Assembly: GCA_964654285.1 (NCBI GenBank)
Contig: CAZZJC010000006.1
Location: forward strand, 67,288-131,287
DNA from: an uncultured Candidatus Kuenenia sp.
Lineage (GTDB): Bacteria > Planctomycetota > UBA11346
Length of the DNA: 64,000 bases
Direction of reading: 5' to 3'
Positions 3,586 to 44,526 of this stretch are shown one piece after another (the first letter of the stretch is position 1; the number at the start of each line of letters is the position of its first letter). The notes under the pieces are model-generated. The model did not search any database, was not told where the DNA came from, and saw only the letters and a program-made list of their open reading frames with translations. Made by a program: the position numbers and the translations under genes.

Positions 3586-3936
3586 TTACACCGTTGACTC
3601 CCGCACTAATAGAACGACTCCGATGAGCACAAATCCCATACCGATCAGTTTGACCATACCCAGGCTTTCACCGAACCACCACCAACTGGCGACCGCCACG
3701 ATGCCCATGCCCACCCCGGTCATGATCGGATAGCCGACCGTCAAAGGGATCCGGGTCAGGGCGTAACTGTAGGCAACCAGCGCAAGGCCGAAACTCGTCA
3801 TGCCCAGGATATACCAGGGATCGTGCAGAACGCGGTCGAGCAACGGCCGGCTGACATCCCGGACGCCGGCCTTGACCAGCACATTGGCGGCGGCGTTGAG
3901 CACGACCCCGATGGCGAGAGCGATCCAGGTGATCAC
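3586..3936 (-). CDS. Small 4-TM DMT/EamA(ArnE/GtrA)-like membrane protein; candidate lipid-linked sugar flippase subunit
   Basis: VETVITWIALAIGVVLNAAANVLVKAG...GMGFVLIGVVLLV gives about 116 aa with four predicted TM helices. A GTG start overlaps the DprE2-like stop (GTGA), making it the last gene of the DPA-like operon. It is analogous to GtrA-like Rv3789 next to the mycobacterial DPA genes. Confidence 0.6.
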   Translation of the reverse strand: MITWIALAIGVVLNAAANVLVKAGVRDVSRPLLDRVLHDPWYILGMTSFGLALVAYSYALTRIPLTVGYPIMTGVGMGIVAVASWWWFGESLGMVKLIGMGFVLIGVVLLVRESTV

Positions 3937-4700
3937 AGTTTCAACCGCTTGAAGAGGCACTCGGGGATGCGGGTGATGATGGCCATGATCCAACGCCAGA
4001 ACCAGCGCGTGTAGAGCACGTTCCGCTTGCGGTCGATGGCGCGCAGGATGTCCCGCGCCACCTGTTCCGGCGTGGCGACGAGCGGCGAACCTTCTTTCAG
4101 CAGACCCGCCGTCATCGGTGTGGCGACGAATCCTGGCTTGATCGTCAGCACGTGTTTGCGCTCATGGAACAGCCGGTTCCGCAAGCCTTGCAGGTAGGCT
4201 GCCAAACCGGCCTTGGTGCTGCCGTACAGGTAGTTCGATTGGCGGCCGCGATCGCCCGCTACCGAACCGATCACCGCCAGAACGCCACCTTCAACCAGCG
4301 ATGGCACCAACGCCTCGCAGAGGACCACTACTGAACTGAAGTTCACCTGGATCTGGCGCAGCGCCAAGGTGGCATCCTGTTGCGCAGCACGTTGATCGGC
4401 CATGGTGCCGTAGGCGATGAGCACGGCTTGGACCCCATGCGGCGCCAAGGTACGCAACCGCGCTAGCAGATCACCGTGCTGCGCCGGATCGCCAGGATCG
4501 CAGGTGATCGCCACGGCTTCGACCGCTCCCCGCAGCCGAGCATCGGCCGCCACGCGTTCGCCTTCGGCGGCATCGCGCGACGTGAGGATCACGCGGGCGC
4601 CGCGCCCGGCCCAGGCGCGGACACATGCCCGGGCGATGCCGGATGTGGCGCCGATGACCAGGATGGAAGCAGCCTTTGGATTTCCGGTTGCATCAGTCAC
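3933..4700 (-). CDS. dprE2: Short-chain dehydrogenase; DprE2-like decaprenylphospho-2'-keto-ribose reductase homolog
   Basis: VTDATGNPKAASILVIGATSGIARA...NYLYGSTKAGLAAYLQGL...WRWIMAIITRIPECLFKRLKL aligns along its whole length with mycobacterial DprE2 ([22 protein letters not shown]...NFVYGSTKAGLDGFYLGL...[20 protein letters not shown]). A GTG start is proposed at 4698-4700; the listed ORF extends to an upstream ATG at 4775. Confidence 0.8.
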   Translation of the reverse strand: MTDATGNPKAASILVIGATSGIARACVRAWAGRGARVILTSRDAAEGERVAADARLRGAVEAVAITCDPGDPAQHGDLLARLRTLAPHGVQAVLIAYGTMADQRAAQQDATLALRQIQVNFSSVVVLCEALVPSLVEGGVLAVIGSVAGDRGRQSNYLYGSTKAGLAAYLQGLRNRLFHERKHVLTIKPGFVATPMTAGLLKEGSPLVATPEQVARDILRAIDRKRNVLYTRWFWRWIMAIITRIPECLFKRLKL

Positions 4701-4796: not shown

Positions 4797-6140
4797 TCAT
4801 CCCACCAGCCCCAATCGCACCGCCAAGCGCGAGCGGACTCGACCGTGCGGGTCCAACTTTGCCTGGAATTGCCTGAATTCATCCAGGCGCGGATACATCG
4901 CCTGGACGGCGGCGGCACTGCCCAAGGTATCCTTGGCGAAGTAGATCCGGCCCTGATGCGCGAGCAGGATCGCCTGCAGGCGTTCATGCAACGCATGGAT
5001 GCGGTCGGCAGCGAACGGGATGTCGAGCGCCAGGGTGAATCCCGGGGCGAGGTAGGACAGCCAGCCTGGTCCGGCCGCGCCGCTGCGCTTGAGCACGGCC
5101 AGGAAACTCGCCAGGCGCGCATCGCTGATCGCCTCCAGCACCTGGCGCAATCCCGCCGCCGCGGTCGTATCCGGGAACCATGCCTGGAACTGGATGAAAC
5201 CGCGCGTGCCATAGATCCGGTTCCACTGATGGACGGCATCGAGCGGATAGAAGAACGTGTCGTAATCGACAATCTTGGTGCCGTCGCCGTGTTTCCAGTA
5301 AAAAGCTTGGTTGAACGCACTTACCGACCACGACCCCAGGGCCCAGGACGGAAAATCGAAGGGCACCGTCTTGCGCCCCTTGCGAGGGACGCTCATCGGC
5401 CGGTCGCGGTAGGCACGCGGCAGTTCCTCCGGTTCGGCGTCGTTCCCGAGCATCAGCACCGACCGGCCGAGGGCCGCACCGCGGGCCAGGCAGTCGATCC
5501 ACGCCACGCTGTAGCGATGTCCCTGATCTTCCTCAGCCAGACGGGCCAGGGCACGGTCGAGCCCCCCCGCACGTTCATAGCGGACCCGGTACCACGCCGA
5601 GGGCACCCGTCGCAACCGCAGGGTCACCGCCAGGATGAACCCCGTCAGGCCCATGCCGCCGACACTGGCCCAGAACAGGTGCGGATCATTGGCCGGGGTG
5701 ACGGACCGGATCTCGCCGCTCGGCAATGCCAGCACCAGTTCCGTCACATGGGCAGAGAAAGAACCGTCCACATGATGGTTCTTGCCATGCACATCCGCCG
5801 CCACCGCCCCACCCAGGGTGACGAACTTGGTTCCGGGCGTGGTCGGCAGGAAGAATCCCCGGGGTTGGAAATGCTCGATGATCGTCGCCAGACTCACCCC
5901 GGCCTCGGCGGTGAGCAGTCCGCTAGCGGGATCGAAGGCCAGGAAGCGATCGAGACCGGTGTTGCCCAGCACCACGCCACCATCGACGGCGGGCACCGCC
6001 GCATCGCCATACGAACGCCCCAAGCCGCGCGCAATCCAGGGTTGCGCCAGAAGCCTGGGCAGTTCTGCCCAGGTGGTGGGCAGGATGACCTGGCCGGGAA
6101 CTACCGGCACCCGACCCCAACCGGACAGCAACGTGGTCAT
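4797..6140 (-). CDS. dprE1: FAD-linked oxidase; DprE1-like decaprenylphospho-beta-D-ribose 2'-oxidase homolog
   Basis: MTTLLSGWGRVPV...ARGLGRSYGDAAV...PGTKFVTLGGAVAADVHGKNHH...YPRLDEFR matches the DprE1 N-terminal (LTGWGRT...RGLGRSYGD...PGT..VT.GGA.A.D.HGKNHH) and C-terminal regions. The start overlaps the stop of the upstream HAD-UbiA gene (ATGA). The listed 728-aa ORF carries a spurious N-terminal extension. Confidence 0.85.
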   Translation of the reverse strand: MTTLLSGWGRVPVVPGQVILPTTWAELPRLLAQPWIARGLGRSYGDAAVPAVDGGVVLGNTGLDRFLAFDPASGLLTAEAGVSLATIIEHFQPRGFFLPTTPGTKFVTLGGAVAADVHGKNHHVDGSFSAHVTELVLALPSGEIRSVTPANDPHLFWASVGGMGLTGFILAVTLRLRRVPSAWYRVRYERAGGLDRALARLAEEDQGHRYSVAWIDCLARGAALGRSVLMLGNDAEPEELPRAYRDRPMSVPRKGRKTVPFDFPSWALGSWSVSAFNQAFYWKHGDGTKIVDYDTFFYPLDAVHQWNRIYGTRGFIQFQAWFPDTTAAAGLRQVLEAISDARLASFLAVLKRSGAAGPGWLSYLAPGFTLALDIPFAADRIHALHERLQAILLAHQGRIYFAKDTLGSAAAVQAMYPRLDEFRQFQAKLDPHGRVRSRLAVRLGLVG

Positions 6141-7564
6141 GGTGATCCTTTCGGCCCGGCCCCCAGGATGAGTCCGATCGCAAGGATCACCATCACCCAG
6201 GAACCTCGATCCTTGATCGCGAACACGATGGGGTCGTCGTGCAGTTCGCCGCGTCCGGCCTTCAACCAGACCCGGCACGACCACCACAGGATGAGCGGCA
6301 CCAGTCCCCACAGCATCTCGGGTCGCTGATAGAGACCCGGTGCCGCCGGCCCGGCCACATATAGTCCTACCACCAGGGCGGTGGCGAAGGCCGCCGCGAT
6401 GCCGCCCGTGGTCACAAAGGGCAGATCCTCGGCCCGCCAGCCCCGGCCCTTGGCCCCGGCACCACCGGTGGACACCACGCCATGCAATTCCGCCGCCCGC
6501 TTGCCCAGGGCCAGGGACAGGAACAGGAAGACCAGCACCGCCATCAACCAGGGCGACAACGGGATCCCCAACGCGACCGCCCCCGCCACCGACCGCAACA
6601 CATAGAGTCCGGCAAGGATGAACACATCCAGCAGCACCTTGCGTTTGAGGGCGAACGAATATGCGAACGTGACCGTGTAATAGATCCCCAGCATCATCGC
6701 CCCCAGCGGCGAGGCGCACCAGGCCAGGATCCCGGCGGCGATCAGCAACGCTGGGGCCAGGACGAGACCATACAGCACCGGCAAGGTGCCGGCGGCGAAC
6801 GGTCGCCGCCGTTTGCGCGCATGCGCGCGATCGTTTTCCAGATCCAGGAGGTCGTTGAGGAGGTACACCGACGAGGCGCACAGACAGAAGGCGAGGAACA
6901 ACCACCCGGCCGCCAACCAAGTTCCCGTGGCGGTGACATGCGCCGCCAACAGGGGCAGGAAGACCAGCAGGTTCTTCACCCACTGGTGCGGCCGCAGGGC
7001 CTTGATCAGGGCCTTGCCACGTGAGGTCGCGTCGGGATGCCGCCCGAGCACCGGTGCACCGACGCGGGCTTCCGACCAGCCAGCGGCCGGTCCGGCGAGC
7101 ACGGCACCTGCACTCGCGCGCCAGATCGGAAGGTCAGCCGCGCAATCCCCAGCGTAGCAGAACGGACCCTGGGCATCGGCCTGGATCGCCTCCAATTTCG
7201 CGGCACCCTTGCGATTCACCGTGCCGGTGGCGATCACGCCATCGAAGCACCCCAGGTGGTCCGCCACTGCCTGGGCGATGCGTTCGTGCGCGGCGGTGGC
7301 CAATACCACCCGCCGCCCCACTGCCCGCTCGGCGCGAATCCATTCGACCAGTTCGCTTCGGTACGGCAGCAAGGCTGCATCTGGCATCACCCGTTCAGCC
7401 AACCAGGATTTGGCTGACAGCGCTCCCCGCAGAAGCACGAACGGGATCCGCCACGCCATCCAGGGTTGGCGGCGCACCGCCAAAGCGACCGAATCCCATA
7501 GGGAATCGCCGGGGTAGAGGGTGCCGTCGAGGTCGATATAGAGCGGGGGCACGGGCGATTGCAT
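6137..7564 (-). CDS. Fusion protein: N-terminal HAD-family phosphatase domain plus C-terminal UbiA-family prenyltransferase (decaprenyl-phosphate 5-phosphoribosyltransferase-like)
   Basis: MQSPVPPLYIDLDGTLYPGD is a HAD motif I (DxDGT). After about 190 aa come ~9 TM helices with ALRPHQWVKNLLVFLPLL and NDLLDLENDRAHARKRRRPFAAG, the UbiA Asp-rich prenyl-PP binding motifs. It is homologous to Rv3806c-type DPPR synthase. Confidence 0.8.
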   Translation of the reverse strand: MQSPVPPLYIDLDGTLYPGDSLWDSVALAVRRQPWMAWRIPFVLLRGALSAKSWLAERVMPDAALLPYRSELVEWIRAERAVGRRVVLATAAHERIAQAVADHLGCFDGVIATGTVNRKGAAKLEAIQADAQGPFCYAGDCAADLPIWRASAGAVLAGPAAGWSEARVGAPVLGRHPDATSRGKALIKALRPHQWVKNLLVFLPLLAAHVTATGTWLAAGWLFLAFCLCASSVYLLNDLLDLENDRAHARKRRRPFAAGTLPVLYGLVLAPALLIAAGILAWCASPLGAMMLGIYYTVTFAYSFALKRKVLLDVFILAGLYVLRSVAGAVALGIPLSPWLMAVLVFLFLSLALGKRAAELHGVVSTGGAGAKGRGWRAEDLPFVTTGGIAAAFATALVVGLYVAGPAAPGLYQRPEMLWGLVPLILWWSCRVWLKAGRGELHDDPIVFAIKDRGSWVMVILAIGLILGAGPKGSP

Positions 7565-7682
7565 TAGGGTTTGCAGGGAGTGAGTATAATGGCGCTTGCG
7601 ACAAACGGCAACCACCAAGGCAAACGTGGATGTTGGAATCACGTTCAGACTCGGATCAGTTCGATTCATTTTAATTACATGA

Positions 7683-7691
7683 CCCCCCCCC
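7683..7691. repeat. Homopolymeric C9 tract in the divergent promoter region
   Basis: cccccccccc run at 7683-7691 between the HAD-UbiA operon start (7564, minus) and the acyltransferase start (7869, plus). Confidence 0.9.
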
Positions 7692-7868
7692 TCGATTGTC
7701 AAGCATCCCAACCACGTTAGGTTCCTCAACCATGATCCGATCCATTAAAATCACCTGGTCTTGCCCCACCCACAGTTGCCCTGAATACGAACAACCATTT
7801 GGTCATAGCGTCACTTCTTTTAAAGTCGTAGCCCGAAATAATGGGTTCAGACTCGGAACGATTGTCAA

Positions 7869-9059
7869 ATGACTGGACCAAAGTTGGAGGTTGCCACACT
7901 CGATCTGACTATCGCCAGATTCCACTCCCTCGATATTTTGAGAGGACTCGCTGCGCTTTGCGTTGTATTTTGGCACTGGCAGCATTTCTTCTATGAAGGT
8001 TCCGCACTCGGCCCATTTATACCGACTGATCAGCCGGGATTCAGATACCTCTCACTTCTGTATGCTCGTGGGTGGTTAGCTGTTGATCTATTTTTCTGCT
8101 TGTCGGGTTTTATATTCTATTGGTTGTATTCTCAGCGAATCGTGGACAGGACGATAACTCCCAGCCGATTCGCTTTATTGCGCCTCTCTCGTTTGTATCC
8201 GTTACATGTCGTCACTTTAGTTCTTGTCTTGATTGGTCAGTGGTGGCTGACTTCTGCAGGATCAAGGCCATTCGTCTACGCCCACAATGACGGATACCAC
8301 TTTTTGCTGAATCTGGCATTCGCCTCAAACTGGGGATTCGAGCGCGGATTTTCCTTCAATGCTCCGATCTGGTCTGTGTCGGTCGAAGTATTGCTGTATG
8401 CCATCTTCTTCTGCGTTTGCCGGTGGCTGCCGATTCGAGGGTTGGCCCTCGTGATCCTAGCGTTGATTGGACTCCTGGTTGTGCAACGGTTCAATCTCTT
8501 CCTCGGGAGAGGTGTTGGGTCGTTCTTTCTTGGTGGTTGCGCATTTCTTGTTTATATTAGAGTGCGAAGGTCGTCCTGTGTGGCAATTTTGACCTGGACT
8601 GTAATTGGAACCACGATGCTTTTTTGGACGATTGCTATCGTCATTGCAGTAAATCCTCAACTGAGCGCTGCCATCTCCTTGCGCGATACAACCTTATTGG
8701 CTAAATTCGATGACGCGTTGCAAGCAATGCTGGCAACTTGGCCTGTCGTTGTGCTGTTTCCTCTGACCATCCTCGCGCTGACCCTGTTCGAGACGCTACG
8801 TGGTTCGTTTGCCCGGCGATTTTCATGGATCGGGAACATTTCCTATTCATCGTATTTACTTCACTTTCCACTGCAATTTATCTTTCATGCAGTCGCTCTC
8901 CGTTGGACAACCGGCAACATGATCTTTTATGAGCCGTGGGTGATGGTATTATTCTTCACAATACTTATTGGACTGAGTATGCTGAGTTTTCATTTTTTCG
9001 AGATGCCGGTCCAGAATTATTTGCGGCGTTTCGAAATGAATTCCGTGGCCAAATGGTAA
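7869..9059 (+). CDS. Acyltransferase family 3 (OafA/YrhL-like) integral membrane O-acyltransferase
   Basis: FHSLDILRGLAALCVVFWHW...LAVDLFFCLSGF...RLYPLHV contains the characteristic acyltransferase-3 motifs and about 10 TM helices. It lies in a segment of lower GC. Confidence 0.8.
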   Translation: MTGPKLEVATLDLTIARFHSLDILRGLAALCVVFWHWQHFFYEGSALGPFIPTDQPGFRYLSLLYARGWLAVDLFFCLSGFIFYWLYSQRIVDRTITPSRFALLRLSRLYPLHVVTLVLVLIGQWWLTSAGSRPFVYAHNDGYHFLLNLAFASNWGFERGFSFNAPIWSVSVEVLLYAIFFCVCRWLPIRGLALVILALIGLLVVQRFNLFLGRGVGSFFLGGCAFLVYIRVRRSSCVAILTWTVIGTTMLFWTIAIVIAVNPQLSAAISLRDTTLLAKFDDALQAMLATWPVVVLFPLTILALTLFETLRGSFARRFSWIGNISYSSYLLHFPLQFIFHAVALRWTTGNMIFYEPWVMVLFFTILIGLSMLSFHFFEMPVQNYLRRFEMNSVAKW

Positions 9060-18603: not shown

Positions 18604-19296
18604 GTGCGATCTCCGGCATGGACAGGCCCAAGCAGTCGGGATCATGGCCAACCCATGACAGGACCCAGCCCCGTCGATGAACTCATGCAGCGGGTCGCCG
18701 CCAGGGCCGCCTGGTACCGCCGGGCGGACGCCCGGGATGGTCTGGCCCTGCCGGAACCATTGCCGGCGCTGAGCCGGCCGGAAGCGCCGCGCGCGGTTCC
18801 GCAGCATCCCCGGGTCGGCCTGCATGAATTGCTCTCGCTACGAGGGGGTGATGTCGTTTCATCAGCCTATGAACGCCTGCTCTGGCGCTGCGCGAGTCCC
18901 GAGGAACTGGCCTTCCGGCTCGAACTGTTCCGCAGCGGCCGCCAAGATGTCTTCACCCTGATCCATGATCTTCGCCACAGTCCCGAGGGCATCCGTTGCG
19001 GGGTGCGGATCACCGGCAAAGGTTGGCGAAGGATCATCTTCGCCGTGCTCCGTCTTCCGATGGGCCGGCGCATGTGGCTTGGTTTGCGGGCCTTATTCGC
19101 CCTGCCCCGCTTGCGGGTCGACATCGGAGCCGAGTTGAGGCGTCAGGATCAACGTGTCGAGCGAATCGAGCACGCCCTGGGCGGCTTCGGACCGAAAGCT
19201 GCCCATGATCCGGAAACCGCTCAGGCTCTGCGGTGCCGGCTCGCGGCCCTTGAGCGTAGGGTCGCGGTCCTTGAACAGACGGTAGACCGTCCGTGA
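18604..19296 (+). CDS. DUF4214-like domain protein with a short C-terminal coiled coil (truncated WbdD-like paralog without a catalytic domain)
   Basis: VVSSAYERLLWRCASPEELAFRLELFRSGRQDVFTLIHDLRHSPEG has a DUF4214-like pattern. The C-terminus LRRQDQRVERIEHAL...LRCRLAALERRVAVLEQTV is a predicted coiled coil. An alternative start is at 18655. The stop overlaps the start of the following GT (ATGA). Confidence 0.5.
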   Translation: MRSPAWTGPSSRDHGQPMTGPSPVDELMQRVAARAAWYRRADARDGLALPEPLPALSRPEAPRAVPQHPRVGLHELLSLRGGDVVSSAYERLLWRCASPEELAFRLELFRSGRQDVFTLIHDLRHSPEGIRCGVRITGKGWRRIIFAVLRLPMGRRMWLGLRALFALPRLRVDIGAELRRQDQRVERIEHALGGFGPKAAHDPETAQALRCRLAALERRVAVLEQTVDRP

Positions 19297-21608
19297 TGAA
19301 TAAACGCATCGGCATCGTCGTCCCCTGGTATGGTGAAGCCCTGCGTGGCGGGGCAGAGACCGTGGCGCGGCAAGTGGCGCTCCGACTTGCCGCACGTGGT
19401 CATACGGTCGAAGTCCTCACCACGTGCTGCCGGTCCTTCCTGGACGACTGGGCGGTGAACCACCTGCCAGAGGGTTCGTCCGCCGATGGTCCGATACGGG
19501 TTAGCCGCTTCCCCGTCGATCCGCGCGATGCGCATGCTTTCAACTCGGCCAATGGATTTCTGCTTGGGCTGCCACCGCATCATTTCTCGCCTGGATTGGC
19601 CATTCCAGATCCGGGGTTCGTACCGCACAACCTCCACAGCGCCGCGCTCGTCCGCCATGTGGTTGACCATGCCGCAGAATACCACCGCGTTCTTTTTACG
19701 CCCTATCTGTACGGACCGATCCTGCGTGGTGCCCCGGCGGTCGCCGAACGGGCGGTTCTGCAACCCTGCCTGCATGACGAATCCTACGCCTACCTGGAAC
19801 CCATCCACGCCATGTTCCAGACAGTGCGTCGGTGCGCCTTCCTGTCCCATGGCGAGGCGGACCTTGCCGAGCGGATCTACGGTCCTGCGGTGATCGATGG
19901 TTCCATCGTGGTCGGATCGGGGATCGAAAGCGAAGAGTTAACCACGTCGGTCGCCGCCGGGGCTGATTCCCCGCTCATCCCCGAAGGGCCGTTCCTGCTC
20001 TACCTTGGTCGGCGCGATGCCACCAAGGGGGCCGACCTGCTGATCGACGGTTGGCGCCGCTACCAGGCTGCCCATCCAGGCAATCCGCTGGCATTGGTCC
20101 TGGCCGGACCAGGCCCGAAATCCTACACCGACCATGCGCTGCGGGTGACAGATCTCGGCCTGGTCAATGCCGCAACCAAGGCGGCTTTGCTGCGGGGTTG
20201 CCTTGCCCTGGTCCACCCCAGCCGCAATGAAAGCTACTCGCGCAGTCTGATGGAAGCCTGGCATTGCGGCCGCCCGGCGGTGGTTCATGCGCATTGCCCC
20301 GCCACCGCCGGGGCCATGGCGCGGGCGGGGGCAGGATGGCTTGCTAGTGAAGATCCGGATGCGTGGGCCCAGGCCATCGAGTGCGTCGCGGTATCGACGC
20401 AGGCCGAACGAGATGCGTTTGGTTCCCGTGGCGTCGCCTATGCGGCCGAGCACGCAGACTGGGAACGCTGTATCGACCGCTACGAGCAGCTCCTTGATCT
20501 TGCACCTACAACGGTGGCGACCATCCCGTTGCGAGCACGCCTGGGTCGGATCGATCAGGTCCTGACCGGATTCGACCTCGGAGATGCTATCTCGGAGGAG
20601 GCGCTCACGATCCAGCGTTGGTTGCGATCCCATGGGTGGCTCTCCGACATCGTTGCCCAGTATATCCAGGGACCGTTGCGCAGCGCCTGTGTGCCATGGC
20701 GAACTGGTCTGGTGAACCCTTCAGCCGGTATCATCTACCATCATTCGATCGGATCTGAGATCGCGACCGACGCAATTGCCCACCCCGGGCCCAAAGCCTT
20801 GATCTACCACAATATCACCCCGCCAAAATTTTTCACGGCGTATAAACCGGAACTCGCCAAGATGCTTCAGGATGGGCTCGACCATCTGCCCAGCGCTTGC
20901 GCCAGTTTCCCGCACCTCTGGGCGGATTCGGCCTTCAATGCCCGGGAATTGGCAGTTGCTGCGGGTCGACCCGTGGAGGTGCTGCCCCTGTCGGTGCCGC
21001 CCGCCAAATGGGCGGTGACGCCCGACCAGGGACTTCTCGCCGCCTTGCGCCGGGATCAGGTGCGCAACGTGCTGTTCGTCGGCCGGGTGGCGCCCAACAA
21101 GTGCCAGCATGATCTGGTGCGGATGTTCTGGCATCTGCTGCGGATGGGGGTCAATGCCAGACTCTGCCTGGTCGGACAGGTCTTCCCTGGGGATCCCTAT
21201 GTGGAGGAGGTCCAATCGCTCGCCGCCAATCTCGGCATCGCGAGCCGCGTCTGGATGCCCAACAAGATCACGGTGAGCGAATTGACCGCGGTCTGGAAGG
21301 TGGCGGATGTCTTCGTCAGCCTGAGTGAGCACGAAGGCTTCGGTGTGCCCCTGGTCGAAGCCATGCTGTTCGGCGTTCCCGTCGTCGCGTTTTCATGCAC
21401 CGCGATTGCCGAAACGCTGGGCGGTGTCGGTGTTCTGATGCCCGACAAGGGCGACCTGGTTGAAACTGCAGCAACCGTCGAGACCATCCTGGAAGATGCC
21501 AATCTGAGTGCGGAAATCGTCGCGCGCCAACGCGTGCGACGGATGGATTTCCTGCCTGCGGCAATAGAAAAAAGATATGAAACCTTGATTGGGGGGGCGT
21601 TTCATTGA
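19293..21608 (+). CDS. Two-module GT4 glycosyltransferase, 771 aa (paralog of modules 1 and 2 of the 1160-aa GT)
   Basis: IGIVVPWYGEALRGGAETVARQVALRLAARGHTVEVLTTC (module 1) and ...NVLFVGRVAPNKCQHDLV...EHEGFGVPLVEAMLFGVPVVAFS (module 2). The sequence is colinear with aa 1-~770 of ORF 10052..13534. Confidence 0.85.
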   Translation: MMNKRIGIVVPWYGEALRGGAETVARQVALRLAARGHTVEVLTTCCRSFLDDWAVNHLPEGSSADGPIRVSRFPVDPRDAHAFNSANGFLLGLPPHHFSPGLAIPDPGFVPHNLHSAALVRHVVDHAAEYHRVLFTPYLYGPILRGAPAVAERAVLQPCLHDESYAYLEPIHAMFQTVRRCAFLSHGEADLAERIYGPAVIDGSIVVGSGIESEELTTSVAAGADSPLIPEGPFLLYLGRRDATKGADLLIDGWRRYQAAHPGNPLALVLAGPGPKSYTDHALRVTDLGLVNAATKAALLRGCLALVHPSRNESYSRSLMEAWHCGRPAVVHAHCPATAGAMARAGAGWLASEDPDAWAQAIECVAVSTQAERDAFGSRGVAYAAEHADWERCIDRYEQLLDLAPTTVATIPLRARLGRIDQVLTGFDLGDAISEEALTIQRWLRSHGWLSDIVAQYIQGPLRSACVPWRTGLVNPSAGIIYHHSIGSEIATDAIAHPGPKALIYHNITPPKFFTAYKPELAKMLQDGLDHLPSACASFPHLWADSAFNARELAVAAGRPVEVLPLSVPPAKWAVTPDQGLLAALRRDQVRNVLFVGRVAPNKCQHDLVRMFWHLLRMGVNARLCLVGQVFPGDPYVEEVQSLAANLGIASRVWMPNKITVSELTAVWKVADVFVSLSEHEGFGVPLVEAMLFGVPVVAFSCTAIAETLGGVGVLMPDKGDLVETAATVETILEDANLSAEIVARQRVRRMDFLPAAIEKRYETLIGGAFH

Positions 21609-22777
21609 TTAAGCCGCGCATCGCGATGGTCGTCCAGCGGTATGGCCTCGAGGTCGCCGGCGGGGCCGAGTCTGTCGCGCGCGGGATCGCCCAGAAGATG
21701 GCTTCGGGTCCTTGGGAGGTTGAAGTCCTGACTACCTGCGCGATTCATTACGGCACCTGGAGGAACCATTATCCTTCAGGAAAGCTGCAAGACGGACCAG
21801 TCCTCGTGCGCCGTTTCCCGGTCGCAAGGGAGCGTCAAGAGTCTGCCTTCACCGCGTGGTGCAACCGGATCGGACACCAACCCGAACACGTCAGCCCTGC
21901 CGAAGCGGAAGCATGGATGCAGGCCCAGGGCCCTGATTGTCCGCAACTCACCGACTGGGTCGCCGAGAACGGCCATTGCTATGCTGGCGTGATGGCGTTC
22001 ACCTATCTCTATGCGACCACGGTGAACGCCTTGCGAGCCGCGCCAAAGGGAAGACGGATCCTGGTCCCCTTTGCCCACGATGAGTGGACTTTGCGTCTGC
22101 CGATCTGGCTTGAGTGGTTCGCGAACGTCGATCGCCTCGTGTACAGCACCGAAGAAGAGGAGAGCCTGCTGACATCCCGTTTTCCCGCATTGCGCGGGCG
22201 TGGGAGCGTGGTTGGTCAAGGTTTCACGCCACCGCCCCTTGGCAATGCCGACCGGTTCCGACAGACATTCGGTATCTACCGGGATTTCCTGCTCTACTGC
22301 GGCAGAATCGATCTGAACAAAGGGGTCGACATCCTGCTCGAACAACACGCGCGCTGGCGCAGGGTCGATGCAACCGCCCCCGATCTGGTGCTGATCGGCC
22401 AGGAAATGATCCAATTGCCCGCGCAACCAGGGGTGCATCGACTCGGGTTCGTCACCGACACCGTACGCGTTGATGCCCTGGCTGCGTGCCGGGCTTTGAT
22501 CAATCCCAGTGCCCTGGAGAGTTTAAGCCTCGTATTGCTCGAAGCCTGGTCCGCCGGTCGGCCGACGCTGTGCAATGCCGCCTGCGCGGTGATGGTCGGT
22601 CAGAGCCGGCGCAGTGGCGGGGGACTCTGGTATCGGGATGACGCCGAACTGCGCGCCGCGTGGGATATGATTAGGCATTCCCCACCGGATGCCGCCTCAG
22701 CCGGGCGTTGGGCCCGCGAGCGCTACGCGTGGCCGGCCATCATCGCCGGCTATGCGGCGTCTCTTCCCACGATGTGA
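21605..22777 (+). CDS. Single-module GT4 glycosyltransferase, 390 aa (paralog of module 3 of the 1160-aa GT)
   Basis: IAMVVQRYGLEVAGGAESVARGIAQKMASGPWEVEVLTTC...LLEAWSAGRPTLCNAACAVM. The start overlaps the stop of the upstream GT (ATGA). Confidence 0.85.
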   Translation: MIKPRIAMVVQRYGLEVAGGAESVARGIAQKMASGPWEVEVLTTCAIHYGTWRNHYPSGKLQDGPVLVRRFPVARERQESAFTAWCNRIGHQPEHVSPAEAEAWMQAQGPDCPQLTDWVAENGHCYAGVMAFTYLYATTVNALRAAPKGRRILVPFAHDEWTLRLPIWLEWFANVDRLVYSTEEEESLLTSRFPALRGRGSVVGQGFTPPPLGNADRFRQTFGIYRDFLLYCGRIDLNKGVDILLEQHARWRRVDATAPDLVLIGQEMIQLPAQPGVHRLGFVTDTVRVDALAACRALINPSALESLSLVLLEAWSAGRPTLCNAACAVMVGQSRRSGGGLWYRDDAELRAAWDMIRHSPPDAASAGRWARERYAWPAIIAGYAASLPTM

Positions 22778-23819
22778 TCACGGGGTCGCGGCCGCAGTAC
22801 CATCAGCCCAGACCCGCAGGCCCTGTCGAGCCAGATACAATGGGATGACCGTGAATCCGGCCTGGGTAAGGTCGCGCTGGAGGATCCGCTTGGCCTCGGA
22901 TCGATGCCTGCAGAGCAGGGTCACGGAACCGCCGTCACCACCAGCACCATTGACCTTGCATCCAAGCACGCCATGCGCCTGGGCGATGGTGATCACACGT
23001 TCGAAATCGGTGCCAACCAAGGCAGGATGCAAGGCGCGTTGGGCCTCGGTGTTCTCGTTCCACACTGTACCCAGGCCTGACCAATCTCCACGCATCAGTG
23101 CGTCTTTAGCCCGCAGGGCCAGACTGCGGAAACGTTCGAGGCGGACATCGGCATGAGCTTCAGGTCCGAGGTGCCGGATGACGTCCTGATGCACGGCAGA
23201 CGATTGGTGCGGTTTTCCTATGTAGACCAGCACCATGCGCCGTTCGAGTTCCCACCAGAGAGGGTTGGAAAGTTGGATCGGAGACACCGACGCATCGGGG
23301 AAACGGCTCATCTCGATCAGGTTGACTCCACCGTAGGCGGCACAGAGTTGATCCTGGATGCCGCTTTGAAGGGACAGGTCTTCCGTTTCGATGCGATGCG
23401 CCAACCGCGCGATCTCGTAGGGAGTGAGCGTTCCGGCAGAAAGCCGGTCGAGAGCGGCGATGATCGCCACCGAGACCGAGGCCGAGGTGCCGGTCGAGGC
23501 CCCTGGCGGGACCTCGCAAAAGATGCTGACATCGATGGAGGTGCGTTCCGGGATCTGCAGCCGGCGCAGGGCGCATTCCAGGAGCGGCAGCTTGTCGTAG
23601 GCCCGGTCGAGCTCTTCCATGGTGAAGTGCAGGCCGAAGTTCTCGGCATGGACGGCAACCCGGGGCTGGTCAGGACGTCGTTCCCGGGTGGTAATCTGCA
23701 CCTCGACGTAGGGATAGACCGCAATGTTGCACACCCGGCCGTGACCGGCGAACCAGGTATCGGTCCAGCCTCCTACATCGGCGACGCGGATCGGGGCGAC
23801 AGCGGTGATGGTGGTCATG
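22778..23819 (-). CDS. GHMP-family sugar kinase (HddA-like), copy 1
   Basis: MTTITAVAPIRVADVGGWTDTWF...CEVPPGASTGTSASVSVAIIAAL (GHMP motif II)...KVNGAGGDGGSVTLL (motif III). The second half of the gene has lower GC3. Confidence 0.8.
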
Positions 23820-23963
23820 CGGATCGGTTTCCTTGTTTGGGCGCGCAGCCTGCCGGCAATGGGCCGGTTCGTAAAGAGGCTGTCGGTCAAGGCGGAACTA
23901 CTAGGAAAGCGGCACCCAGGATGAGCCCCTGGCATCGATGTCTGCTGTGCGAAGATCACGGGC

Positions 23964-25361
23964 ATGAACCGTGCGCAGCAATCGGGGATTCTCTGGTGCG
24001 ATATCGGGGATCTCCTCGACTATTTCGCTCTTTATTCTCGTCCATCTGGAATTCAACGGGTAGTGGTAGAGGTTCTGCGGATGGCGCGACTGCGGTGCCT
24101 GCCCGAAGTGCGTTTGTGCCGGATCACCCCGGGTGGACGGCTGCTGCACCTGGACTGGAGTTGGCTTGATCAGGTGTCCAAACCCCCGACACCGCCGGTA
24201 GTAGCCGCCCCAGGCAAACCTCATCTCATTTCGGTGAAATTGGCCACCCACCTGCGCCAATGTGCGAAAAACGCTGTGCATTTGACATTCGCGTGTTTCC
24301 CGGGCGACAGCGGTGATCGATTCCGTCGATGGATCCGCCCCTTGCGCATTCCGCCAGCCCGACGGAAATGGCATGCGTCACTGGCGGCCGCAGGTGTTCC
24401 CTCGCTGCCGTCCGCTAGCGATCTGGTGGTGACCCTTGGTGCCCCCTGGATCCGACCTGGCTGCGAAAAGGATATGGAGCAGGTCCTGGCGCAAAGTGGG
24501 GCACGTTACGCGGTGCTCGTCTACGACTTGATTCCGCTCACCCATCCGCATCTGTTTCCGGATGAGCCGAACCCGTTCATGCCCTGGTTGGATTGGGCCC
24601 TCAAGCGGGCCTGTCTGGTGCAGACGATATCCCATTATTCTGCCCGGACGATTGCAGCCTACCGGGAAAATCGTGGCTTTCCCCTGGTCCCTACCGAGGT
24701 CATCCGCCTCGGCGATCCCCTGCAGGCATCGACGCGTGCCCCCAATCCGCTGCCCCCTCATATCAGGTTCATCCTCTGCGTTGGCACCATCGAAGCCCGC
24801 AAGAACCATCGCTTGCTGCTGGATACCTGGTTGATCCTGCGGGAGCGATTGGGGGAAAGATGCCCGCATCTGGTCTGGGCCGGACGCAAGGGCTGGTTGG
24901 TGGACGACCTGTTCACCCAACTCCGCGCCGCCCGCTGGCTCGAGGGACGCATCATCCATCTTCCCCAGGCCAGTGACGCCGAGTTGGAAACCCTGTACCG
25001 GGATTCGCTGTTCACTGTCTATCCCAGCCTGGCGGAAGGATGGGGCTTGCCGGTCGCTGAAAGTTTGTCCCGGGGCAAGGTGTGTATTGCCTCCAATAGC
25101 ACGTCGATCCCGGAAATCGCAGGCGACTTGCCTTACTTCATTGATCCCTTCGATCCACGTTCTTTGGCCGAACTAATCTGTCGTCTCCTCGACCAACCAG
25201 CCGAACTTGCTGCCCGGGAAGTCCGTATCCGGGAAACGTGGCGGGCACAACCCTGGTCGGTCTGTGCGGATCAGGTGTTGCGAGGTCTGGAAGAAACATT
25301 GGTCCTGAACGAATCCTGCCGATCACAAAGCACTGGTCCGAGCTGGTTGGGTCAGTCTTGA
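23964..25361 (+). CDS. GT4 family glycosyltransferase
   Basis: ...ILCVGTIEARKNHRLLLDTW...YPSLAEGWGLPVAESLSRGKVCIASNSTSIPEIAGD carries the GT4 EX7E motif region. Confidence 0.8.
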   Translation: MNRAQQSGILWCDIGDLLDYFALYSRPSGIQRVVVEVLRMARLRCLPEVRLCRITPGGRLLHLDWSWLDQVSKPPTPPVVAAPGKPHLISVKLATHLRQCAKNAVHLTFACFPGDSGDRFRRWIRPLRIPPARRKWHASLAAAGVPSLPSASDLVVTLGAPWIRPGCEKDMEQVLAQSGARYAVLVYDLIPLTHPHLFPDEPNPFMPWLDWALKRACLVQTISHYSARTIAAYRENRGFPLVPTEVIRLGDPLQASTRAPNPLPPHIRFILCVGTIEARKNHRLLLDTWLILRERLGERCPHLVWAGRKGWLVDDLFTQLRAARWLEGRIIHLPQASDAELETLYRDSLFTVYPSLAEGWGLPVAESLSRGKVCIASNSTSIPEIAGDLPYFIDPFDPRSLAELICRLLDQPAELAAREVRIRETWRAQPWSVCADQVLRGLEETLVLNESCRSQSTGPSWLGQS

Positions 25362-27127
25362 CCGTAAACGCGACGTATCGGTTGCCAATCCGACCAGTCC
25401 CAGATCCGATCCGGACGGGAATCAACCGAGACTGGGGTGCTATTCCATTCGTGCGGACCAAAGGACCTGACTGCCCGCCAATGCACCACCGCCCCAGCGG
25501 CCACTAACAAGCCGATGAACAGGAGAACGGGTTTTTGCCAGGCTGAATGGCATTTGAGGATCTTGATGATGAAAGGCACGCATAGCAAGGCGATGCTGAC
25601 GTATAGAGGTGCTTGTAAGCGGGGTCCGAAACTCCACCCACCCCACCAGTGTGGAAAGCAGGCAATGAGTATGGTTCCGACCACGACGTGCGCCGTAACT
25701 CCAATCCACAACCAGCGTCGATCCCGGTCGTAGACGATTCCTACTACCGCCCCCGGGATCGCGGCCAACATGACCGGATTGAAAATGAAAAAGCCGCGGT
25801 TGGGACTGAACCACTGGCCGAGGATGGCCTGCGGGAATACGGACGGATCAATGCGATTCCCACCATAATAGGGTGGGAATATCGTGCCGAATGCCGTCCA
25901 GGACCATGTGATAAAAAAAACGAGGACTAGCCCACATCCAAGCGCGAACCCAACCAACGGTGCGATGCGCCAACGATTGCCCAGAATCAGAAAGAGCAGC
26001 GCCACGGGTCCAATTAGCGCACCGTCTGGTCGGCACACGAAGGCAAATCCGACCAGCAGACCGGCCGCCAACGCGAGCAGCGGACCTCTGGCAGCGAGGG
26101 CCGCCCACCACGCAGCGGTCAGGCACGCTAGCATGGTGGAACTCGACCAGATAGAAAGCCCGTGTATACTGAGATGGGACGTAGCGAGTGTGAATACGGA
26201 TGCGCATATCGTTGCCGTCATCAAACCAGTTCCGACCTCCAATAGAAGGCCAAGGAATAGGGTTGCGGTCAAGGCGGTCATCACTCGGGAGGCCCATACG
26301 GCCACCGTTTGATCATCGAACCCCAAGATGTTCTGCACTGCCACGAAAGGGAGCAGCAGGCAGGAAGTTCCTGGTGGGAAGTAGTTGTATGGATTCCCGG
26401 TCGCGCCTAGGCGTATCCCGTAACTTTGCACAGTTACGATCTGCTCCTGCCACGCTGATAGGTCCAACGTCCTCTGGTAGAGGATTGCCTGAGCACCAGG
26501 AACATTCCACATATTATCACCAGTTCCAGCCAAGTTTTGGTGCCCGGTACCCAACCCAACCAGTACCAGGATGACAAGGAAGAAACCTGCCAACATGCGA
26601 AATCGCCCCGACGGGGTCAAAGCCACCAAGGCGATGGAAAGCACCCCCAAGCCGGCCAGCAGCCAACTAACTCCGTTAGCGGTCCCTGATCGGACCGCGA
26701 TGCGAAGTTGGTCAATGACTAACTCGGGTGTAGAAAGCTGGGAAAAAACACGCAATTCTACTTGCGCTGGAACCTTGGGGCCGGTCTGAAATGCGCGTAT
26801 TGCGTGCTTAGCCGATGGTGGGAATACCACCTCCTGAGCACCATCATCGTATCCCGGGGCCATGAGATCTATATGGATTTGTACAGGGGTGCGAGTTGAA
26901 AGCCACACGGTATAGGTAGACGAAGGTAGGGGCTTAATCACCCGCCACGTGAGCGACGGCAACCGGACTGTTCCATTGGCATCGACGGGAATCGACGACT
27001 GCCAAGCAGCTGGACTTTCCACCAACACGGTGTCGCCAATGCCCAGTCGGATGGAAATTCCCCAGGCGAGCAACAATATTCCTATGGCAACACCAAGCAA
27101 CCGGAAGAGAAACCAGCGGTTGATCAT
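25352..27127 (-). CDS. Large polytopic membrane protein (one N-terminal TM helix, ~170-aa periplasmic domain, then ≥10 TM helices); candidate GT-C-type lipid-linked-sugar glycosyltransferase
   Basis: MINRWFLFRLLGVAIGILLLAWG is a signal-anchor. A soluble β-rich segment follows, then a long hydrophobic region. The start overlaps the cysC stop (ATGA). GC is lower than in flanking DNA. No family was recognised from sequence alone. Confidence 0.55.
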   Translation of the reverse strand: MINRWFLFRLLGVAIGILLLAWGISIRLGIGDTVLVESPAAWQSSIPVDANGTVRLPSLTWRVIKPLPSSTYTVWLSTRTPVQIHIDLMAPGYDDGAQEVVFPPSAKHAIRAFQTGPKVPAQVELRVFSQLSTPELVIDQLRIAVRSGTANGVSWLLAGLGVLSIALVALTPSGRFRMLAGFFLVILVLVGLGTGHQNLAGTGDNMWNVPGAQAILYQRTLDLSAWQEQIVTVQSYGIRLGATGNPYNYFPPGTSCLLLPFVAVQNILGFDDQTVAVWASRVMTALTATLFLGLLLEVGTGLMTATICASVFTLATSHLSIHGLSIWSSSTMLACLTAAWWAALAARGPLLALAAGLLVGFAFVCRPDGALIGPVALLFLILGNRWRIAPLVGFALGCGLVLVFFITWSWTAFGTIFPPYYGGNRIDPSVFPQAILGQWFSPNRGFFIFNPVMLAAIPGAVVGIVYDRDRRWLWIGVTAHVVVGTILIACFPHWWGGWSFGPRLQAPLYVSIALLCVPFIIKILKCHSAWQKPVLLFIGLLVAAGAVVHWRAVRSFGPHEWNSTPVSVDSRPDRIWDWSDWQPIRRVYGQD

Positions 27128-27961: not shown

Positions 27962-28525
27962 ATGGCGACGCCCACGGTGACGACTTCCGGTGTGATGCTG
28001 GCTTGGCCCGACGGGTTTGCGGCGGCGTTGCCGCGCAGCGGGTGGGTGGTGGCGCATGCCAAGCCGCGCACCGAGAAGAAACTCGCCGAGGATCTGCTGC
28101 GCCTGGGGATCGCCGGGTGCCTGTTCCTGGAACGCCGCATCAAGCGTTATCCCGGCAAAGGGGTGCAGGAGAGCCAGGTGCCGCTGCTGGGCGGGTACCT
28201 GTTCGTGCACCTGGGCGAGGGCCGGGATCCCGAGCCGGTCTACCGCACCGAACGCGTGGTGCGGCTGATCCGGGTGCCGGATCCGGGCCGGCTGGCGGAT
28301 GATCTGGCGGCCCTGCAGCGGCTGATCGAGGGCGCGCAACGGCCGCTGGTGGTGCGGCCGGAACTGATGCCTGGCCAGGTCGTGACGATCGCCAGCGGCG
28401 TCTTTTCCGGCTGCCGGGGCGTGATCGTGCGGCGCGAAGGGGCGGCCGAGCTGGTGGTGAACATCGAGGCGCTCGGGCATTCGGTGGCGGTGCGGATGGG
28501 GGCCGACCTGGTCGGCACGGAATAG
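27962..28525 (+). CDS. NusG-family paralog (RfaH/UpxY/TaA-like transcription antiterminator)
   Basis: WVVAHAKPRTEKKLAEDLLRLGIAGCLFLERRIKRYPGKG...LLGGYLFVHL is an NGN domain. The C-terminal KOW domain is GQVVTIASGVFSGCRGVIVRREGAAELVVNIEALGHSVAVRM. An alternative start is at 27995. Confidence 0.75.
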   Translation: MATPTVTTSGVMLAWPDGFAAALPRSGWVVAHAKPRTEKKLAEDLLRLGIAGCLFLERRIKRYPGKGVQESQVPLLGGYLFVHLGEGRDPEPVYRTERVVRLIRVPDPGRLADDLAALQRLIEGAQRPLVVRPELMPGQVVTIASGVFSGCRGVIVRREGAAELVVNIEALGHSVAVRMGADLVGTE

Positions 28526-28579: not shown

Positions 28580-29614
28580 TCAGCCCGCGGCGTTGCCGTC
28601 AGTCCAGACGCGCAGGCCCTGGCGGGCAAGGTAGAGCGGGATGACGGTGAAGCCGGCCTGGACGAGGTCGCGCAGCAGGGCGCGCTTGGCGTCGGAACGC
28701 GGGCCGCACAGCAGGGTGACGGAACCGCCGTCGCCGCCGGCGCCGTTGACCTTGCAGCCCAGGATGCTGTGGGCGGTGGCGATCGCGATGACCTTCTCGA
28801 AATCGGGGCCGACCAGGGCGGGATGCAGGGCGCGCTGGGCCTCGGTGTTCTCGTTCCAGACCCGGCCCAGTCCGGCCCAGTCGCCGCGCAGCAGGGTGTC
28901 CTTGGCGCGCAGGGCGAGGCTGCGGATACGTTCCAGGCGCGGATCCGCGTGCGCATCGGGGCCGAGGTGGCGGATGACCTCCTGGTGCACGGCCGATGAC
29001 TGGTGCGGCCGGCCGATATAGACCAGCGCCATGCGCCGTTCGAGTTCCCACCACAGGGCATTGGGCAGGTGGAGCGGCGACACCGACGCGTCCGGGAAGC
29101 GGGTCATCTCGATCAGGTTGACGCCGCCGTACGCGGCGCAGAGCTGGTCCTGGATGCCGCTCTGCAGGGAAAGATCCTCGGCCTCGATGCGGTGCGCCAG
29201 GCGGGCGATCTCGTAGGCGGTGAGGGTGCCCCCGGACAGGCGGTCGAGCGCGGCGATGATCGCGACCGATACCGAGGCCGAGGTGCCGGTGGACGCGCCC
29301 GGCGGCACCTCGCAGAAGAGGCTGACATCGATCGAGATGCGCTCCGGGACCTGGAGCCGGCGCAGGGCGCATTCCAGCAGCGGCAGCTTGTCGTAGGCGC
29401 GGTCGAGCTCCTCCATCGAGAAGCGCAGGCCGAAGTTCTCGGCGTGCACCGCGACCCGGGGCTGGTCGGGGCGGCGTTCGCGCGTGGTGATCTGGACTTC
29501 GACGTAGGGATAGACCGCGATGTTGCAGACCCGGCCATGACCGGCGAACCAGGTGTCGGTCCAGCCGCCGACGTCGGCGACGCGGATCGGGGCGACGGCG
29601 GTGATGGTGGTCAT
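28580..29614 (-). CDS. GHMP-family sugar kinase (HddA-like), copy 2 (about 89% aa identity to copy 1)
   Basis: MTTITAVAPIRVADVGGWTDTWF...CEVPPGASTGTSASVSVAIIAAL...KVNGAGGDGGSVTLL. GC is high throughout. It is embedded in the listed 487-aa ORF 28580..30043, whose N-terminal extension is spurious. Confidence 0.8.
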   Translation of the reverse strand: MTTITAVAPIRVADVGGWTDTWFAGHGRVCNIAVYPYVEVQITTRERRPDQPRVAVHAENFGLRFSMEELDRAYDKLPLLECALRRLQVPERISIDVSLFCEVPPGASTGTSASVSVAIIAALDRLSGGTLTAYEIARLAHRIEAEDLSLQSGIQDQLCAAYGGVNLIEMTRFPDASVSPLHLPNALWWELERRMALVYIGRPHQSSAVHQEVIRHLGPDAHADPRLERIRSLALRAKDTLLRGDWAGLGRVWNENTEAQRALHPALVGPDFEKVIAIATAHSILGCKVNGAGGDGGSVTLLCGPRSDAKRALLRDLVQAGFTVIPLYLARQGLRVWTDGNAAG

Positions 29615-29808
29615 GGGCGGTTTTCCTGGGGAAGGATCGAGCCTGCCGCCCGGCGGCGGTGAGGGAAGATGGCGTGCCAGGTCGCAGGCGCCGGGTACGC
29701 GCGATGGCGGCGATGCCGGAAACGCATCCGCCCCGGCCGCAACCGCGCCGGATCGCCCACCCGCTGCGTCGGGCGGTTGAGTCCCCCGGCGGGGGGCGAC
29801 ACTCGCCG

Positions 29809-30924
29809 ATGTCCATGTCCACGACCGCTGTCTCTCCATCGGCCGGATTGGCCACCGATCGCGCCACGCTCGCCGCCTGGCTGGCGTGCGAGGACGACGT
29901 CCGGCTGGAGGACCTCTGGGCGGCGGCCGATGCGGTGCGGCGCGAGCATGTCGGCGATGACGTCCACCTGCGCGGGCTGATCGAGATCTCGAACCACTGC
30001 GTGCGGCAGTGCGCGTACTGCGGCCTGGCGGGCAGTCGCGCACCGGAACCGGCCGGACCGCTGCCGCGTTATCGCATGACGCACGACGAGATCCTCGCCT
30101 GCGCGCACCAGGCGCGCGGGTACGGCTACGGCACGGTGGTGCTGCAAGGCGGCGAGGACTACGGCCTTACCGCCGACTGGGTCGCGGCGGTGGTGCGGGC
30201 GATCAAGGCCGAGACCGGGTTGTCGGTGACGCTCAGCCTGGGCGAGCGGCGCGAGGACGAATTGCAGGCCTGGCGCGCGGCCGGGGCGGATCGCTACCTG
30301 CTGCGCTTCGAGACCGCGAACCGGGACCTCTACCGCCGCATCCATCCGGATCTCGGCCGCGAGGTGTCCGACCGGCTGGCGCTGCTGCAGCGGTTGCGCG
30401 CGATCGGCTACGAGATCGGCACCGGCATCATGGCCGGCATCCCGGGGCAGACGTTCGCGGATCTGCTCGACGACCTGGAGACCTTCCGCCGGTTGGATCC
30501 CGACATGATCGGCATCGGGCCGTACCTGCCGCATCCGCAGACCCCGCTCGGCCGCGAGGCGATCGGCATCTTCGCCGACACGCCGGGGCAGGTGCCCTCC
30601 AGCGAACGGATGACCTGCATCCTGGTGGCGCTGACGCGGCTGGTCTGCCCCGAGGCGAACCTGCCCGCGACGACCGCGCTGGCGACGATCAACAAGCGCG
30701 ATGGGCGCGAGAACGGCCTGCGCCGGGGGGCGAACATCCTGATGCCGAACCTGACCCCGGTGCGCTATCGCGCCCTCTACGAGATCTATCCCGCCAAGGC
30801 CTGCGTCGACGAGACCGCGGAGCAGTGCCACGGCTGCCTGGACGGCCGCATCCGCGCGCTCGGCCGGGTGCCGGGGCGCGGGCCGGGCAGCCGGCGGCGG
30901 TCGCTGGCCGGGGGAGGCGCATGA
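29809..30924 (+). CDS. hydE: [FeFe]-hydrogenase maturase HydE (radical SAM, BioB-like)
   Basis: LRGLIEISNHCVRQCAYCGL is the CX3CX2C radical-SAM motif in a HydE-type context. VLQGGEDYGL and GANILMPNLTPVRYRALYEIYP are HydE-like C-terminal blocks. The start is placed at M51 of the listed ORF. The stop overlaps the hydG start (ATGA). Confidence 0.75.
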   Translation: MSMSTTAVSPSAGLATDRATLAAWLACEDDVRLEDLWAAADAVRREHVGDDVHLRGLIEISNHCVRQCAYCGLAGSRAPEPAGPLPRYRMTHDEILACAHQARGYGYGTVVLQGGEDYGLTADWVAAVVRAIKAETGLSVTLSLGERREDELQAWRAAGADRYLLRFETANRDLYRRIHPDLGREVSDRLALLQRLRAIGYEIGTGIMAGIPGQTFADLLDDLETFRRLDPDMIGIGPYLPHPQTPLGREAIGIFADTPGQVPSSERMTCILVALTRLVCPEANLPATTALATINKRDGRENGLRRGANILMPNLTPVRYRALYEIYPAKACVDETAEQCHGCLDGRIRALGRVPGRGPGSRRRSLAGGGA

Positions 30925-44355: not shown

Positions 44356-44522
44356 CAGCGGGGTTCCACCCTGCCTGTTTTTTCAGCGGGGTTCCACCCC
44401 GCCACGCCCCGCCAGGGCTCTGCCCTGGACCCGGATTGCCCGGAAGGGCTGTTAGCCGCGGGGTTCCACCCCGCCACGCCCCGCCAGGGCTCTGCCCTGG
44501 ACCCGGATTGCCCGGAAGGGCT
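44351..44522. repeat. Tandem direct repeat, 72-bp unit, two full copies plus one diverged partial copy, internally palindromic
   Basis: The unit is gttagccgcggggttccaccccgccacgccccgccagggctctgccctggacccggattgcccggaagggct. Identical copies lie at 44386-44450 and 44458-44522, with a partial copy at 44351-44385. It contains the hairpin cagggcTCTgccctg. Confidence 0.9.
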
Positions 44523-44526
44523 CACC

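Follow-up and report, generated by a model that had tools for sequence, protein, structure and literature searches.

The window analysed here is a single stretch of DNA of 64,000 nucleotides (64 kb). Judged by the named relatives of a conserved xylulokinase, the organism is a member of Planctomycetota. In this window, a run of nine cytosines (C9) lies in a 304-bp intergenic region with a GC content of 48%, between two divergent genes whose ATG start codons are at 7564 on the minus strand and at 7869 on the plus strand. On one side of the run, a four-gene operon is read on the minus strand, and on the other side, an acyltransferase gene is read on the plus strand. The features of the locus, with positions given in window coordinates, are the following:

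3586..3936, minus strand: SMR/ArnE-F-like small membrane protein, 116 aa (Pfam Multi_Drug_Res; weak ArnE and ArnF matches), last gene of the operon
3933..4700, minus strand: DprE2-like short-chain reductase (NF053786, 161 bits, under the cut-off of 250)
4797..6140, minus strand: DprE1-like FAD oxidase (NF053785, 413 bits, under the cut-off of 500), with a 4-nt overlap with the upstream gene
6137..7564, minus strand: fusion of a HAD-type phosphoribose phosphatase and a UbiA-type polyprenyl-phosphate phosphoribosyltransferase (HAD-UbiA), 475 aa, first gene of the operon
7643..7655, plus strand: first copy of the 13-mer GTTCAGACTCGGA (alignment score 26 vs. a shuffle maximum of 23)
7683..7691: the C9 run, CCCCCCCCC, G9 on the minus strand, read directly and flanked by A and T; with wider flanks, TTAATTACATGA-C(n)-TCGATTGTCAAGC, where n = 9
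7845..7868, plus strand: second copy of the 13-mer, one base, and the second copy of the 10-mer CGATTGTCAA, ending at the acyltransferase ATG
7869..9059, plus strand: OafA/YrhL-type acyltransferase, 396 aa, ~50% GC, with an Acyl_transf_3 domain only

The product of the first operon gene matches the Pfam families HAD and UbiA and scores 543 bits against NF006088 (cut-off 351). With translation from 7564, the DxDGT motif is close to the N-terminus, a position that it also has in the nearest homologs, and NCBI annotates the same 475-aa product. A Logan gene call of 510 aa, from an ATG at 7669 (13 nt from the run), was rejected because its 35-aa extension is covered by no homolog; by hand count, third-position GC is ~51% in this extension vs. 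78% in the gene. The oxidase and the reductase show strong similarity to DprE1 and DprE2, respectively, with both scores under the NCBIfam equivalog cut-offs, and the reductase scores above the cut-off of NF005489 (285 bits). Given this DprE1/DprE2-like pair, arabinofuranose is implied as the sugar; the SMR-like protein is a candidate lipid-sugar flippase. Judged by its gene content, the operon matches a three-component pentofuranose side-chain system, which would modify finished glycans outside the cytoplasm. Farther along the minus strand, an ORF at 1905-2297 that resembles dTDP-4-dehydrorhamnose 3,5-epimerase matches only positions 63-166 of the 168 positions of the profile, and may be truncated or frameshifted.

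The acyltransferase domain was identified by PF01757 (68 bits vs. a cut-off of 31, residues 19-368). The nearest homolog of this protein is 55% identical, and the homologs, named OafA/YrhL by JGI, are scattered across phyla. A preliminary description of the locus, which proposed the run as a phase-variation switch between a minus-strand operon for an arabinose donor and an O-acyltransferase gene, was right on the gene identities and the divergent layout, given the 543-bit match of the first gene to NF006088, the DprE1-, DprE2- and SMR-like genes that follow, and the Acyl_transf_3 neighbour.

The region to the right is a 20-kb cluster of glycan genes with lower GC content, which encompasses Wzm/Wzt ABC-transporter genes and genes for very large GT4 glycosyltransferases, methyltransferases and an APS kinase, with a polytopic putative glycosyltransferase inside and an UpxY/RfaH-like NusG paralog at the edge. 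The sole candidate for a GT-C transferase is a polytopic protein of 591 aa (25352-27127) with a weak match to LA_3751/3752 (32 bits vs. a cut-off of 200). The gene for this 591-aa putative glycosyltransferase contains a slippage-prone A8 run (25913-25920), and another slippage-prone site, the G7 run at 21591-21597, is located at the overlap of the GT4 genes 19293-21608 and 21605-22777. There are two GHMP-kinase genes, one in the cluster (22778-23965) and the other outside (28580-30043); the former shares 82% nucleotide identity with the counterpart of the latter in a relative, L085, which suggests that a GHMP-kinase gene may have been duplicated into the island.

The GC content drops from ~67% to ~48% exactly at the start codon of the operon and remains low through the acyltransferase gene. 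Because of this break, and because the acyltransferase homologs reach only 55% identity and are scattered across phyla, the intergenic region looks like part of an imported segment. It contains a split direct repeat, both pieces of which are exact: in the upstream copy, the 13-mer GTTCAGACTCGGA (7643-7655) and the 10-mer CGATTGTCAA (7693-7702) lie 37 nt apart, with C9 and a −10-like hexamer in between. This repeat points to either a history of local duplication and rearrangement or a shared protein-binding site. No Rfam family matched anywhere in the window, and RNA folding of the intergenic region was no better than that of shuffled controls on either strand; an RNA element at C9 was rejected on these grounds. 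No plasmid match was found for the intergenic region, which leaves a mobile-element or plasmid origin of this region unsupported. A mini-ORF of 13 codons on the plus strand (7679-7720; ATG ACC CCC CCC CTC ... TAG, MTPPLDCQASQPR) contains C9, and was dropped as too small and unsupported; it is probably fortuitous.

The run itself is present at 7683-7691, as claimed in the preliminary description: it was read directly, and it recurs in an independent assembly, the Logan assembly of SRR6262237, that is identical to the window over all 401 bp compared, C9 included. An error of assembly at C9 is therefore unlikely. The distances of ~120 bp to the start of HAD-UbiA and ~180 bp to the start of the acyltransferase were also given correctly: C9 lies upstream of both genes, 119 bp from the ATG of HAD-UbiA (7564, minus strand) on one side and 178 bp from that of the acyltransferase (7869, plus strand) on the other.

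All other homopolymers in the 64-kb window are shorter than C9. The remaining G/C runs of at least 7 nt are C7 at 5562-5568, G7 at 21591-21597 and G7 at 44566-44572; no further G/C runs of at least 8 nt and no short tandem repeat arrays were found in the 64 kb, including the 20-kb glycan cluster, and the window does not resemble a segment rich in contingency loci. Under a first-order Markov model, ~1.8 G/C runs of at least 9 nt are expected per window; this model overpredicts, however, with ~20 G/C runs of at least 7 nt expected vs. 4 observed. The observed counts of G/C runs at lengths 4 to 7 are 359, 65, 11 and 3, respectively, a decay ratio of ~0.2, and extrapolation of this decay yields ~0.15 runs of at least 9 nt per window. 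In ~700 kb of unrelated or distant HAD-UbiA loci, 6 such runs were detected (~0.5 per 64 kb). Thus, C9 is locally unusual, given that the GC content of the intergenic region is only 47.7%, yet it is no rarity at the genome scale.

With respect to length, C9 coincides with the cut-off of 9 for poly-G/C phase variability that PhasomeIt applied in the analysis of the Neisseria phasome (PMC5953494); the preliminary description took tracts of at least 9 bp to be characteristic of contingency loci. Runs of at least 7 nt are strong indel hotspots even in an organism with 65% GC and few such runs (PMC10334774). In several distant HAD-UbiA loci, G/C runs of 9-11 nt (L025 5176-5184, L046 5689-5699, L067 5833-5841, L071 6411-6419) are found just downstream of the synthase gene, in the expected position of the DprE1-like gene, and some of them coincide with short open frames; the tracts may be genuine and prone to frameshifts, or may reflect homopolymer errors of long-read sequencing.

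Read on the operon strand, the run and its surroundings are TTGACA ATCGA-GGGGGGGGG-TCA TGTAAT TAAAATG, with the following promoter-like elements, to which an alternative site closer to the operon is added:

7697..7702, minus strand: −35-like hexamer TTGACA (6/6), part of the only 11/12 site in the window
7680..7696, minus strand: 17-nt spacer ATCGA-G9-TCA, in which the run makes up 9 of the 17 bases
7674..7679, minus strand: −10-like hexamer TGTAAT (5/6), with G for A at position 2, followed by the AT-rich TAAAATG
7583..7611, minus strand: alternative proximal sigma-70-like site TTGCCG-N17-TATACT (9/12; one found vs. 0.5 expected)

In a systematic scan with both hexamers, in which consensus positions were scored out of 12 with a spacer of 16-18 nt, TTGACA-N17-TGTAAT was the only sigma-70-type site in the 64 kb to match at 11/12, a score against the E. 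coli sigma-70 consensus, which may not be that of the host. Composition-preserving block shuffles produced 0.10 sites matching at 11/12 per window, and such a site appeared in just 0.2% of the shuffles of the 360-bp stretch 7541-7900. By our own estimate, the chance that the flanks of a fixed 9-nt run form such a site is ~1 × 10−4 (for any of 54 combinations of offset and strand, with a probability of 0.25 at each of 12 positions). What is directly established is the presence of the run, the identities of the genes, the geometry of the locus and the rarity, in statistical terms, of the promoter-like match. From the site, transcription is predicted to start near 7667, with a leader of ~100 nt.

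Mapping of the −10 and −35 elements around the run, as suggested in the preliminary description and done here by sequence scan, thus places C9 in the spacer of a predicted site, TTGACA-N17-TGTAAT. The claim that the run lies within a divergent promoter is plausible for the operon strand, where the run occupies the spacer of the 11/12 candidate site, and unsupported for the acyltransferase strand, where the scan found no promoter-like site that uses C9. Because such plus-strand sites are absent, the link to the acyltransferase is unsupported, and control of this gene by C9 is unlikely.

In TGTAAT, the −10-like hexamer, G at position 2 takes the place of A, which is the most strongly conserved base of such elements. 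The frequency of canonical sigma-70-like sites in the window is at chance level (7 vs. 5.9 expected, 1 vs. 2.5, and 0 vs. 0.6), with none in the native segment of the window at 40-60 kb; the use of the E. coli consensus by the host is, therefore, unverified, and a literature search for planctomycete promoter maps gave none.

These observations are compatible with a role of C9 in the spacer of a working promoter, whereby the length of the run would tune the expression of the arabinose-donor operon. We put this reading forward tentatively, as a real possibility that falls somewhat short of an even chance. G9 would then be the core of the 17-bp spacer in the sigma-70-type promoter-like sequence that faces the operon, and the operon would make a lipid-linked arabinofuranose donor for side chains of an ABC-transporter-type surface glycan. 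Being a 9-nt homopolymer, the run would be prone to slipped-strand gain or loss of bases, so that variants with G8 or G10 would be expected at an elevated rate; in such variants, transcription of the operon would be lowered in steps, and less transcription would result in less arabinosylation of the glycan. In support of this reading, the site faces the first gene of the four-gene operon at a sensible distance. We infer here that the site is a working promoter, that length variants appear at a useful rate, and that these variants change expression. As a promoter-spacer switch, C9 appears to be a plausible, if unproven, candidate, and it could be a selected switch or merely a mutable spacer.

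The length of the tract is C9 in both readable assemblies (n = 2). A scan of JGI metagenome contigs for the exact flanks, with a variable gap for the run, found nothing, and the genome-contig collection yielded only relatives with at most 49% identity. In protein searches, the nearest homologs were 74% and 71% identical for HAD-UbiA and 55% identical for the acyltransferase; no close relatives that carry the run region were present in the collections searched. Upstream of the two homologous operons closest in sequence (74% and 71%), the neighbouring genes are different, and neither a homopolymer nor an alignable or conserved motif is present. In the relative L085, with 87-92% nucleotide identity, collinearity with the window is limited to the part right of 27925, beginning at the gene for the UpxY/RfaH-like NusG paralog (27962-28525), and therefore the glycan cluster and the operon, with the run region, are missing at that position. 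By this comparison, the part of the window from 1 to 27925 is an apparent variable island that adjoins an antiterminator-like gene. Elsewhere in the window, intergenic tandem arrays are located at 44386-44772, between genes ending at 44355 and 44791, and consist of a 72-nt unit (1.9 copies, 100% identity) and a 91-nt unit (2.7 copies, 92%); similar units occur in L085.

The principal alternative is that C9 is an incidental homopolymer with no effect on expression, a by-product of slippage or of imported low-GC DNA carrying the acyltransferase, in which case the operon would be transcribed from another site and TTGACA-N17-TGTAAT would be fortuitous. The proximal site TTGCCG-N17-TATACT lies 72 bp downstream of the run, and its −10 has the canonical bases at positions 2 (A) and 6 (T); this site, as well as two ECF-like motifs (see below), would leave C9 outside the core promoter. 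An incidental origin is favoured by the frequency of G/C runs of at least 9 nt in unrelated loci (~1 per 100 kb), by the 48% GC of the intergenic region, which fits the foreign acyltransferase and not the operon, and by the lack of such a run at the closest homologous loci (74% and 71%). The −10 without A at position 2, the lack of enrichment of consensus promoters in the window and the equal length of the tract in both readable assemblies point in the same direction. However, an incidental run has to be reconciled with a site that only 0.2% of the shuffles of 7541-7900 reached, with our estimate of ~1 × 10−4 for flanks that form this site around a fixed run, and with the orientation of the site toward the operon at a sensible distance. 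We regard this alternative as credible and only slightly less likely than the promoter-spacer reading, with a probability under one half.

A different source of transcription would be one or two minus-strand promoters of the ECF-sigma type, within the two copies of the 13-mer, each of which contains one ECF-like motif:

7647-7624, minus strand: TGAAC-N16-CGT
7849-7826, minus strand: TGAAC-N16-CGA

The run would then be located either upstream of the proximal promoter or in the leader of the distal one, and its effect, if any, would be confined to the phasing of sites upstream. ECF sigma factors are abundant in planctomycetes, the motif is present in both copies of an exact 13-mer, and the window contains 9 matches to TGAAC-N16-CGW vs. 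3.3 expected, a number that 1 of 100 shuffles reaches. Nevertheless, the motif is short and was found post hoc, and its other seven matches are outside this intergenic region; a cognate sigma or anti-sigma gene was absent among the ORFs scanned against Pfam (roughly half of the ORFs in the window), and the leader RNA with G9 shows a chance-level structure (z = −0.03). Control of the operon by such promoters is, in our judgement, unlikely.

That C9 is a sequencing or assembly artefact, from poly-G in two-colour chemistry or from a chimeric join at the GC break, is highly improbable: the run does lie exactly at the fall of the GC content from 67% to 48%, and the source looks metagenome-derived, but two separate assemblies are identical at every base of a 401-bp stretch, 9 nt is far below the assembly k-mer length, functionally related glycan genes are found on both flanks, and the split direct repeat of 13 + 10 nt spans the region. 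An invertible promoter, in which a flip between the 10-nt inverted repeats 7623-7632 and 7709-7718 (I4), which bracket the promoter-like site, would redirect the site to the acyltransferase, is hardly credible, given that 10-nt arms with one mismatch are at chance level (four such pairs in 700 nt), that the segment is only 96 bp long, and that a recombinase was absent among the ORFs scanned against Pfam or NCBIfam (roughly half of the ORFs in the window).

[quoted passage not shown] In porA, expression is high with 11G, 2-fold lower with 10G and 13-fold lower with 9G, so that a change of one base in length shifts the expression of a surface component by degrees instead of switching it on or off (PMC3639595). 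The N. meningitidis genome contains some 15-19 such runs (PMC5953494). Unlike the situation here, both length variation and an effect on expression have been demonstrated for porA; furthermore, C9 is the only run of its kind in the window, the −10 has a defect at position 2, and the organism is a planctomycete from the environment.

The fim2/fim3 promoters of Bordetella pertussis reportedly contain a C-stretch of ~13-15 C and depend on BvgA (Willems et al., 1990). As in the locus analysed here, poly-C is found in a high-GC organism, between an upstream recognition element and the −10, whereas the run here consists of 9 C, compared to ~13-15 C, and has no known activator in the place of BvgA. 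The divergent fimbrial promoters of hifA and hifB in Haemophilus influenzae reportedly carry TA repeats in their overlapping spacers (van Ham et al., 1993); there, too, a repeat tract in a divergent intergenic region has been proposed to set promoter spacing. The hifA/hifB repeat, however, is part of both overlapping promoters and controls both genes, whereas here only the minus-strand site includes the run.

With regard to the function of the operon, the gtr operons of Salmonella, three-component systems for O-antigen glucosylation, are reportedly phase-variable through Dam and OxyR (Broadbent et al., 2010). Like the operon described here, they provide a lipid-linked sugar donor for periplasmic side-chain modification, in their case of the O antigen, and they set a precedent for phase variability of operons of this kind. 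The mechanism in gtr is epigenetic (methylation) and the sugar is glucose, whereas repeat slippage and arabinofuranose are proposed here.

Pentofuranose side-chain systems, such as those of Citrobacter youngae O1 and O2, include a fusion of a HAD phosphatase and a polyprenyl-phosphoribose synthase along with a flippase (PMC11127046). The HAD-synthase fusion, a flippase (small or MATE-type in those systems, a candidate here), auxiliary epimerase genes (putative here) and the context of an ABC-transporter-type O antigen are common to those systems and the operon analysed here (PMC11127046). The differences are that, here, the epimerase pair is DprE1/DprE2-like, as in mycobacteria, that the candidate flippase is SMR-like instead of MATE, and that the GT-C transferase is only a weak candidate (591 aa, 32 bits vs. 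200). Phase variation is not mentioned in PMC11127046.

That G9 is a selected contingency locus, which would raise and lower the arabinofuranosylation, in the periplasm, of an O-antigen-like glycan in a non-pathogenic bacterium of the environment, presumably under pressure from phages or grazers, seems improbable to us. If true, however, it would be the first slipped-strand phase-variation switch in a promoter spacer to be described in Planctomycetota. Should the run vary and tune the operon, contingency control by repeats over the side chains of surface glycans would no longer be limited to host-adapted pathogens, but would include a free-living phylum and the recently defined class of pentofuranose modifications, and the run would be a simple sequence marker of glycan heterogeneity in metagenomes.
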